The notes under the pieces: model-generated
The model's database searches: none
Told to the model about the DNA's origin: nothing
What the model saw: only the letters and a program-made list of their open reading frames with translations
NCBI RefSeq assembly: GCF_003334305.1
Contig: NZ_QOWS01000005.1
DNA from: Escherichia coli
GTDB lineage: Bacteria > Pseudomonadota > Gammaproteobacteria > Enterobacterales > Enterobacteriaceae
DNA: 64,000 bases
Reading direction: 5' to 3' (one strand)
Program-made: the position numbers and the translations under genes
Shown here: in pieces, positions 59,734 through 62,268 of the stretch
Position numbering within the stretch: the stretch's first letter is position 1
Layout of the letters: each line of letters opens with the position of its first letter

Positions 59734-60255
59734 ATGAAACGTTTTAGTCTGGCTATTCTGGCGCTGGTTGTTGCAACCGGCGCACAAGCTGCCAGTGAAA
59801 AAGTCGAGATGAACCTCGTCACGTCGCAAGGGGTAGGGCAGTCAATTGGTAGCGTCACCATTACTGAAACCGATAAAGGTCTGGAGTTTTCGCCCGATCT
59901 GAAAGCATTACCCCCCGGTGAACATGGCTTCCATATTCATGCCAAAGGAAGCTGCCAGCCAGCCACCAAAGATGGCAAAGCCAGCGCCGCGGAATCCGCA
60001 GGCGGGCATCTTGATCCACAAAATACCGGTAAACATGAAGGGCCAGAAGGTGCCGGGCATTTAGGCGATCTGCCTGCACTGGTCGTCAATAATGACGGCA
60101 AAGCTACCGATGCCGTCATCGCGCCTCGTCTGAAATCACTGGATGAAATCAAAGACAAAGCGCTGATGGTCCACGTTGGCGGCGATAATATGTCCGATCA
60201 ACCTAAACCGCTGGGCGGTGGCGGTGAACGCTATGCCTGTGGTGTAATTAAGTAA
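59734..60255 (+). CDS. sodC: Periplasmic Cu/Zn superoxide dismutase
   Basis: Start chosen at MKRFSLAILALVVATGAQA (signal peptide) with GGAGG Shine-Dalgarno; 173 aa. Confidence 0.9.
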   Translation: MKRFSLAILALVVATGAQAASEKVEMNLVTSQGVGQSIGSVTITETDKGLEFSPDLKALPPGEHGFHIHAKGSCQPATKDGKASAAESAGGHLDPQNTGKHEGPEGAGHLGDLPALVVNNDGKATDAVIAPRLKSLDEIKDKALMVHVGGDNMSDQPKPLGGGGERYACGVIK

Positions 60256-62268
60256 TTAAGAGGCCAGCGTACCTTGCGGTGGTGCTTGCTCAAGTTGCGA
60301 AAGCGAGCAGTACAGCCGCCAGACAATTGCCGCCAGCTCACGGGCGGCAGGTTGATGATGACGGGCAAGGCTGTCGCAAATCCGCTGTAATTCTTCAAGT
60401 GTGGCCGCCAGTGATTTTTGCTGAACGCCACGCTCACTCATCACTCCCCGCAACAGTGAAATACAGTTATCCCGTACTCGCGATAACGGATCGGAACGCG
60501 ATTCCCAGTCGCGCAATTGCCAGACAACATGAGAACAGTTCAGCAGCACTACACCCCAGCGTAATAACCAACGGCGAGCCAGCGCATCCTGGCTGTTACT
60601 CAACTGACTGACGTGATGATAAGTGAGCGATTCAAATTCGCTTTCACTCAGTGTTGGATGGCGGCTTAGCTGATCGACAAAATCCCGGCGCAGCGCGCGA
60701 ATATGGCGGCGGCTTTTACGAGCATCCGATCCTGGACGCAGAATGGCGAACGCTAGCCAAGCCAGCGCAACGCCAACGATTTTTGCCAGATTATCGTTAA
60801 GAAAATCAGCAAAATCATACACCGGGGGATTAGTGACAGCGATAAACGAACCCATAAAAACAATCAGTTGCCCCCACAGTGCGGCAAATTTGGGCATCTG
60901 CAATTTAAGAAGCTGCATTGTCGCCAGCAGTGGAAAGAGAAACAGTAAAAATTGCCACAGATCGCTAATCTGGACCATCAGGCCAAATTTGACCACAAAG
61001 CTGAATAGCGAAAGTAACACCAGCGTGCGCATCAGCAGTGACAACGACTTAAACGGTGCTGCGACGGCGGAGTAGAGTACGCAGCTAATTGCTGCCAGCG
61101 TTAATGCATTGGCACCGGCATCCCATTGCGATGCAATACTCCATGCGCCAATCATCATCAACGTACAAAATGTACGCAGCCCGCTCCACATAGCTTCGGC
61201 GTTGTCGGTATGACGAGCCAGAGCAGATGTCCGTGCGAGTCTGGCATGATCATCTACACCGCTTTGCAGACGATGTAATTCCTGACTACTTTGCAGATAA
61301 AGGCGGCAAAAATAACGTAGTCGCTGCCAGAAGGCGACGTGCCGGTAGTCGGCGACGTTGGTCGGGCGTAGCGGGGCGATAATACGTGCGACGGTGTAAG
61401 CATCTGTTTGCGAACTGGCGAGCGCCGTCAGCAATTGTTCGAGAATTTCTCGCGTGGCACCTGGCGGTGAGGGCCAGTTGAGCAACATACGTCGCAGGCT
61501 GGAGATGACACTGGTCATACGTAATTGCTGGTGGAGTAGCGCATTAAGCCGCGCGTTTTGCTGGCGAAAACGATAGTGGCTCCAGAAAGCCTAGATACGC
61601 AGCAAATTCATGGTCAGTATCTGCCCAATCACCCCCTCATGTGCTGCACGAATGGCATCGTTTGTTTCAGGCTGCCAGAGTAAACTGGCATGTTCCAGTA
61701 ATCGGGCGTGCATGTTTTTCAATGCGGTTAAAAGGGCTGTAGCATCGGAACTGCTAGGCAGGATCATCATCATCATGCCGCCGCACAAAATACCGACTAT
61801 CACCTCGCAAACGCGCGCCTGAGCGATATCCCACAGCTGGCTGGCCTCAGTAATATTAACCATCGGAAAGGCGATGATGGCAGCCGTGTAGCCCGCCAGT
61901 TGAAATGCATACGCGACGTTATTCGTGAAGTGCGCACAGGCCCAGGTACAAAAGCCAAGCCACGCCGACATGCTCAATAGAAAAAACCACGGCTCATTGA
62001 GCGTATGCCCGGCAAGAAGCAGTGCCGCAATGGCTCCCAGTAAACTGCCAGCGATGCGTCCGAGGCTTTTGCTGATGACACCGCCAACGGTGGGAAAGCT
62101 AACCACTGCAGCCGAGGTCATCGCCCAATAGGGTTCATCCAGATTCAAATAATAGGCAACCGTCAGCGCCAGACACATGGCAATGGTATTGCGTAACGCA
62201 TAACGCCATTGCGCCAGCGTGGCCTTGAACCAGGGCAAATTGCGCAAGGACCATGACGATGCGTTCAT
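60256..62268 (-). pseudogene. ydhK: ydhK (fusaric-acid-resistance-type inner membrane transporter) interrupted by one in-frame TAG at codon 226
   Basis: One reading frame spans 671 codons (the K-12 YdhK length) with a single internal TAG at 61591..61593. The 24 codons between that TAG and the ATG at 61518 are open in the same frame ([24 protein letters not shown]). Confidence 0.7.

Follow-up and report, generated by a model that had tools for sequence, protein, structure and literature searches.

How do the transcripts of two converging genes end when no DNA lies between the genes? The sodC/ydhK junction raises this question within a 64,000-nt stretch of Escherichia coli DNA (hereafter the window, to whose full length all coordinates refer), in which the stop codon of sodC directly touches that of ydhK on the opposite strand. 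Probably, the junction is an ordinary tail-to-tail meeting of two unrelated transcription units, with each transcript terminated by Rho inside the opposite gene. The abutment, the transcript overlap and the Rho termination at sodC/ydhK are already known, and the locus is an ordinary one. Direct observation covers the abutment, its conservation and the lack of both intrinsic terminators and conserved structure.

The stop codons of sodC and ydhK touch

Between positions 57700 and 64000 the window equals strain A7 (NZ_CP028767.1; E. coli, orangutan faeces) at all compared positions. The genes and their stop codons lie as follows.

59734-60255, plus strand: sodC, periplasmic Cu,Zn superoxide dismutase, 173 codons plus TAA (open reading frame list, NCBIfam NF007628, and RefSeq on the identical A7 sequence)
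60253-60255, plus strand: sodC stop codon TAA (direct sequence reading)
60256-60258, minus strand: ydhK stop codon TAA (TTA on the plus strand), touching the sodC stop (direct reading; same RefSeq boundary in A7, 55989 and MG1655)
60256-62268, minus strand: ydhK, FUSC-family (AaeB-like) inner-membrane subunit of the YdhIJK efflux pump; pseudogene in this strain, with one internal stop in the translation

The junction at 60244-60263 reads GTAATTAAGTAATTAAGAGG; the sodC frame closes with ATT AAG TAA, and the two frames (59734-60255 on the plus strand, 62268-60256 on the minus strand) leave a spacer of 0 nt. A sequence-only reading of this DNA had claimed that the convergent stop codons abut without a spacer, and direct reading of both frames bears this out. 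Its claim that there is no intergenic terminator likewise holds, because there is no DNA between sodC and ydhK at all, and no intrinsic-terminator-like site was found near the junction on either strand.

SodC matched the NCBIfam equivalog NF007628 over its full length (365.3 bits against a cut-off of 165, residues 1-172 covered). YdhK is 95-96% identical to other Escherichia YdhK proteins, both of its fragments have weak AaeB matches, and its RefSeq product name is FUSC family protein; the intact YdhK/AaeB-like frame of about 670 codons is lost to an interruption at codon 226, and the ydhK of the window is a pseudogene of the FUSC family. The pump to which YdhK belongs is AaeAB-like, directly repressed by SlyA, and a determinant of fusaric-acid resistance in Salmonella (PMC6401476, PMC12506092); it was in Salmonella that its function and its control by SlyA were demonstrated (PMC6401476).

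Each transcript is probably terminated by Rho inside the opposite gene

Rho termination of untranslated and antisense RNA is standard behaviour in E. coli. At this junction the two units would be sodC, on the plus strand and reported to belong to the sigma-S regulon, and ydhIJK, an SlyA-repressed efflux-pump operon on the minus strand, with ydhK as its final gene. Since no DNA lies between the genes, there is no intergenic hairpin at which either transcript could end; a polymerase would pass its stop codon and enter the opposite gene, making untranslated antisense RNA. Rho would terminate this RNA at C-rich, G-poor sequence within a few hundred nucleotides. The sodC transcript would be cut off by about 200-400 nt into ydhK. 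Some of the ydhK transcription would already be halted by Rho roughly 600 nt short of the end of that gene.

For K-12, published data show directly the overlap of the transcripts and the presence of bicyclomycin-sensitive termination regions. In the ExcludonFinder list for MG1655 (NAR 2025, PMC12288877), ydhK-sodC is one of 165 convergent pairs whose transcripts overlapped in 50% or more of 58 RNA-seq samples. Adams and co-workers (eLife 2021, PMC7815308) mapped Rho termination regions on NC_000913.3 by DirectRNA-seq with and without bicyclomycin, and their Supplementary file 2 places one region at 1723937(-), antisense to ydhK, and another at 1723528(+), internal to ydhK. At the antisense region, reads upstream and downstream number 74 and 14 without bicyclomycin and 29 and 28 with it (Rho score 5.10, p 2.8e-5); at the internal region, they number 54 and 20 without and 382 and 449 with the inhibitor (Rho score 3.17, p 8.8e-6). 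Read-through rises under bicyclomycin at both regions, which is the mark of Rho dependence.

Over the 2,535-bp sodC-ydhK span, 33 substitutions and no indels separate K-12 from the window. The positions of the Rho regions therefore map cleanly, and we infer that strain A7 would behave like K-12 at this locus. Position 1723937(-) corresponds to window position 60452, which lies inside ydhK on the sodC strand, 197 nt beyond the stop of sodC.

60376-60616, plus strand: RNA beyond sodC, rich in C and poor in G, that lies antisense to the 3' end of ydhK; contains 60452
60861, minus strand: K-12 Rho region peak within ydhK on the sense strand, from 1723528(+); 605 nt before the ydhK stop

By a composition heuristic, applied to a stretch chosen after viewing the profile, 60376-60616 has a C/G ratio of 1.44 over 240 nt, the 95.6th percentile of the 64-kb sequence. 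A bias of this kind would be expected where Rho loads on untranslated RNA, and no excess structure is seen in the 195 nt that follow the sodC stop (z -0.11).

These data also bear on how far sodC read-through extends. The sequence-only reading had transcription from sodC running antisense into ydhK; the overlap it envisaged is present in MG1655 (PMC12288877), but it is bounded, with a Rho region 197 nt past the stop (PMC7815308). The same reading had named clear termination within either coding sequence as the observation that would speak against it, and such termination has been found, at least in K-12 (PMC7815308).

Several points weigh against the Rho model: i) the published Rho coordinates are peak scores over 800-nt windows and not exact 3' ends, ii) all transcript evidence comes from K-12 and not from this strain, iii) the read counts are modest (74/14 against 29/28), iv) the C/G windows were picked after inspection of the profile and lie only in the top 1-5% locally, and v) the Term-seq tables of PMC7815308 hold no sodC entry. 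The SMRT-Cappable-seq supplements likewise list neither sodC nor ydhK, and a literature search returned no paper joining sodC, bicyclomycin and Rho-dependent termination.

The locus closely follows the Rho termination past stop codons that has been described in E. coli (PMC7815308), with the same untranslated antisense RNA, here entering sequence that is C-rich and G-poor by composition, and sodC/ydhK itself stands in the published table. There is no mechanistic difference from that system, in which the pair is known at the resolution of 800-nt windows, in K-12. The junction is of little importance in itself; it is the arrangement of the reference genome and needs no special explanation.

The abutment is conserved, and such junctions are common

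In K-12 MG1655 (NC_000913.3), ydhK occupies 1722121..1724133 and sodC 1724134..1724655, abutting and both intact. RefSeq annotates the same boundary in strain 55989, where both genes are intact, and in two MG1655 records. A 60-nt junction probe matched 3,305 of 5,426 complete E. coli genomes at 99% identity or above, and a further 2,042 at 95-99%. Nearly all of these genomes thus have the junction, and the abutment belongs to the species as a fixed trait rather than being an accident of the window.

To this we added a survey of one genome per species with SodC, which gave 80 Enterobacteriaceae loci besides the window, from genera that include Escherichia, Citrobacter, Salmonella, Enterobacter, Kosakonia, Leclercia, Lelliottia, Phytobacter, Franconibacter and Cedecea. 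Throughout the 80 other species, sodC and ydhK are direct convergent neighbours, at spacings from -25 to +14 nt. The spacing is 0 nt in 25 of the 80 loci, +1 nt in three and +14 nt in one; the remaining 51 overlap by 4-25 nt (by 4, 8 or 11 nt in 23 loci, by 22 nt in 26, and by 25 nt in two, both Salmonella). With neighbours conserved and spacing variable, the tail-to-tail contact is old and its exact register drifts between lineages. In the Enterobacter, Lelliottia and Leclercia group and in Salmonella, the overlaps of 22-25 nt place 7-8 codons of each gene in DNA that codes on both strands.

A baseline was drawn from all convergent coding-sequence pairs in the window (A7 annotation) and in two arbitrary 50-kb MG1655 stretches (n = 20). 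The gaps were -4, -4, 0, 0, 11, 36, 39, 40, 42, 50, 52, 62, 63, 63, 127, 132, 145, 158, 227 and 315 nt. Zero or negative spacing is common among E. coli convergent pairs: four of the 20 lack a spacer (purR/punR, gutQ/norR, cueR/ybbJ and sodC/ydhK), or three of 19 when the focal pair is set aside. Like sodC/ydhK, cueR/ybbJ (0 nt), purR/punR (4-nt overlap) and gutQ/norR (4-nt overlap) meet tail to tail and leave an intergenic terminator no space; each of the three also stands in the published excludon list (PMC12288877). What sets sodC/ydhK apart from them is a junction formed by a perfect 8-bp tandem repeat, with rare strains 8 bp longer or shorter.

Two other close convergent pairs lie in the window. 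The purR/punR overlap occupies 45536-45539. The convergent genes ydhS and ydhT are separated by an 11-nt spacer (35659-35669) that leaves no room for a hairpin terminator, and this pair has an MG1655 excludon entry.

Alternative readings of the junction

Could both transcripts end without Rho, at a cryptic bidirectional intrinsic terminator spanning the junction? Such an element would have to be built either from an inverted repeat across the stop codons or from hairpins just inside each gene.

60228-60270, no strand assigned: imperfect inverted repeat ACGCTATGCCT ... AGGCCAGCGT (arms 60228-60238 and 60261-60270), with both stop codons in the loop; judged to be a chance occurrence

In its favour, a stem of about 9-10 bp formed by this repeat is present in the minimum-free-energy folds of both strands, with both stops in its loop; on the minus strand, the 211 nt past ydhK form a fold more stable than that of shuffled sequence (z -3.7), chiefly owing to a hairpin at 60117-60168; and the plus strand carries a GC-rich hairpin at 60328-60349. 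Yet neither the junction-spanning stem nor any other stem is followed by a U-tract on either strand in the folds. A consensus terminator scan found no intrinsic-terminator-like site on the plus strand between 60256 and 61688, and on the minus strand the nearest candidate, at 60109-60096, was a weak stem of 5 bp some 150 nt inside sodC; the scan thus has nothing within about 150 nt of the junction, and the terminator-like sites in the scanned region number four against 3.6 expected from shuffles. The plus-strand 195 nt after the sodC stop fold no better than shuffles (z -0.11). RNAalifold, run on 80 distinct sequences (the window and 79 of the 80 other species), gave no consensus structure at the junction or at the 60117-60168 hairpin; many of the E. 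coli base pairs are broken elsewhere, and the hairpins lying within sodC are disrupted in most of the species. Over the window and the 80 other loci, 90-nt windows centred on the junction had mean z values of 0.06 on the plus strand and 0.21 on the minus strand, with no excess folding energy. Given the lack of a consensus and a junction z of about 0, the E. coli value of -3.7 was treated as lineage-specific or chance. Rfam returned no family between 59600 and 61000 even at E <= 1, and the K-12 coverage drop vanishes with bicyclomycin (PMC7815308). With stems that lack U-tracts, a site count at the level of shuffles and no conservation, an intrinsic or bidirectional terminator at the junction was rejected; this alternative is already largely refuted, and we regard it as very improbable. 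The hairpin at 60117-60168, about 52 nt on the minus strand, is an observation in its own right: it lies in RNA antisense to the 3' half of sodC, is not conserved in the 80 other Enterobacteriaceae, and probably arose by chance.

A different proposal is that the contact exists for a purpose, as a functional excludon in which sodC and ydhIJK hold down each other's expression, either because polymerases collide or because RNase III cuts the sense/antisense duplex. The pair consists of opposite-strand neighbours with overlapping transcripts and belongs to the MG1655 core excludome, where it is named as a convergent excludon (PMC12288877); all 80 species, from many genera, retain tail-to-tail contact or an overlap; and the genes answer to different signals, with sodC placed in the sigma-S and ydhK in the sigma-E regulon (PMC2685091) and ydhIJK repressed by SlyA (PMC6401476). 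The listing, however, rests solely on overlap in RNA-seq coverage. Excludons are defined by mutually exclusive expression through the overlap, whereas for sodC/ydhK coverage overlap is what is on record, and the papers searched yielded no expression data for a reciprocal effect. The spacing, moreover, drifts from -25 to +14 nt with no conserved junction sequence or structure, a pattern that resembles neutral retention of gene order; the overlap is held in check by Rho on either strand (PMC7815308); and roughly one in five of the sampled convergent pairs has no spacer. We therefore consider a functional excludon unlikely. More doubtful still is a contact selected for negative coupling, in which induction of YdhIJK, as an aromatic-acid efflux pump under SlyA control, would lower periplasmic superoxide dismutase and the reverse, and in which an amber codon in the ydhK of A7 would free sodC via Rho polarity; against it stand the freely drifting spacing, the absence of any conserved sequence or structure, and the limit that Rho sets to the overlap. 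Rho termination within each opposite gene, at an ordinary junction, remains the reading that we prefer.

An amber codon in ydhK is private to strain A7

The single internal stop of the ydhK frame falls at codon 226, and the A7 RefSeq note reads 'FUSC family protein, internal stop'.

61591-61593, minus strand: amber codon Q226* (CAG to TAG), from comparison with 55989; window position 61593 is A where other strains have G
61291-61590, minus strand: C-rich, G-poor 300 nt directly after the amber codon, candidate Rho loading region (C/G 1.56, 98.8th percentile)

Across the sodC-ydhK span, the window departs from 55989 in nothing but the G/A change at 61593. An exact 59-mer with the TAG allele was found in one of the 5,426 complete genomes, that of A7 alone; the remaining 5,407 matching genomes differ from the probe. 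The sequence-only reading had tied the inactivation of ydhK to the junction. The amber codon is real in the sequence, but the link is coincidental, for the abutment is found throughout the species and the family and the TAG allele in one of 5,426 genomes. We take Q226* to be a private mutation of A7, or possibly an assembly error, unrelated to the junction.

That the TAG arose as an error of assembly or sequencing, with the ydhK of the source genome intact, would fit an allele seen in exactly one of 5,426 complete genomes and a single base substitution that is the sole difference from 55989 in the span. Substitution errors are, however, uncommon in finished assemblies, C-to-T transitions that turn CAG into TAG are common as real mutations, and repeated loss of ydhIJK within Enterobacteriaceae has been described (PMC6401476); an error is thus improbable, and a genuine mutation is the better account.

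If genuine, the amber codon likely brings Rho termination forward, so that fewer polymerases would reach sodC from the ydhK side. This predicted polarity likely runs opposite to the emphasis of the sequence-only reading, as it would mean less convergent transcription into sodC. The stretch at 61291-61590 is the most C-rich, G-poor part of ydhK, in a window chosen from the profile. As in nonsense polarity, amber 226 leaves about 1.3 kb of untranslated mRNA that starts with the stretch of C/G 1.56; it differs from nonsense polarity in being predicted only, and in that antisense transcription across sodC is the sole 'target' that lies downstream. A restart of translation beyond the amber codon was considered at the ATG at 61518, which opens a 420-codon open reading frame, but the sequence upstream of it, GCTACTCCACCAGCAATTACGT, holds no Shine-Dalgarno-like motif.

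The tandem repeat at the junction varies among strains

The two stop codons lie within a short duplication.

60244-60259, no strand assigned: perfect tandem duplication of GTAATTAA, two copies, holding both stop codons (alignment of the window, K-12, S40 and 2013C-4974)

Its copy number differs among E. coli: with probes for each form, about 77 genomes had three copies and two genomes had one. The three-copy genomes carry at least three flanking haplotypes. In 2013C-4974, which has three copies, both proteins are unchanged and an 8-bp spacer is added between the genes; expansion of the repeat is a harmless, neutral 8-bp spacer. The one-copy genomes are S40 and GDSC2227PM, in which the contraction removes the sodC stop codon; in S40 the sodC frame would extend by about 119 codons, in the frame of the open reading frame at 60279-60611, and RefSeq labels it incomplete. 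RefSeq also marks the sodC of 2013C-4974 as frameshifted (518-nt coding sequence), which the three-copy repeat does not explain, so a separate indel must sit upstream in sodC.

The repeat was also considered as the origin of the abutment and rejected, as it is imperfect in close relatives, and Citrobacter abuts with unrelated sequence. E. whittamii has the imperfect version GTTATTAAGTAATTAAG, and another Escherichia has an imperfect version with CTA as the ydhK stop. These imperfect repeats and the unrelated Citrobacter sequence suggest that the perfect repeat is probably a by-product of ATT-AAG-TAA being followed by TTA-AG, and not the cause of the abutment. For annotators there is some minor value in knowing that contraction deletes the sodC stop, that expansion is harmless, and that the tail-to-tail contact is conserved across Enterobacteriaceae.

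Local context

The junction lies in the gene order nemR-ydhL-ydhF-sodC / ydhK-ydhJ-ydhI / slyA. Elsewhere in the window, Rfam matches at the gathering score are STnc550 at 46562-46952 on the plus strand, HPnc0260 at 37689-37851 on the plus strand, rydB at 19636-19696 on the plus strand and RprA at 13925-14032 on the minus strand. The HPnc0260 match overlaps a tRNA-Val pair, and all four belong to ordinary small-RNA loci of E. coli that have nothing to do with the junction.

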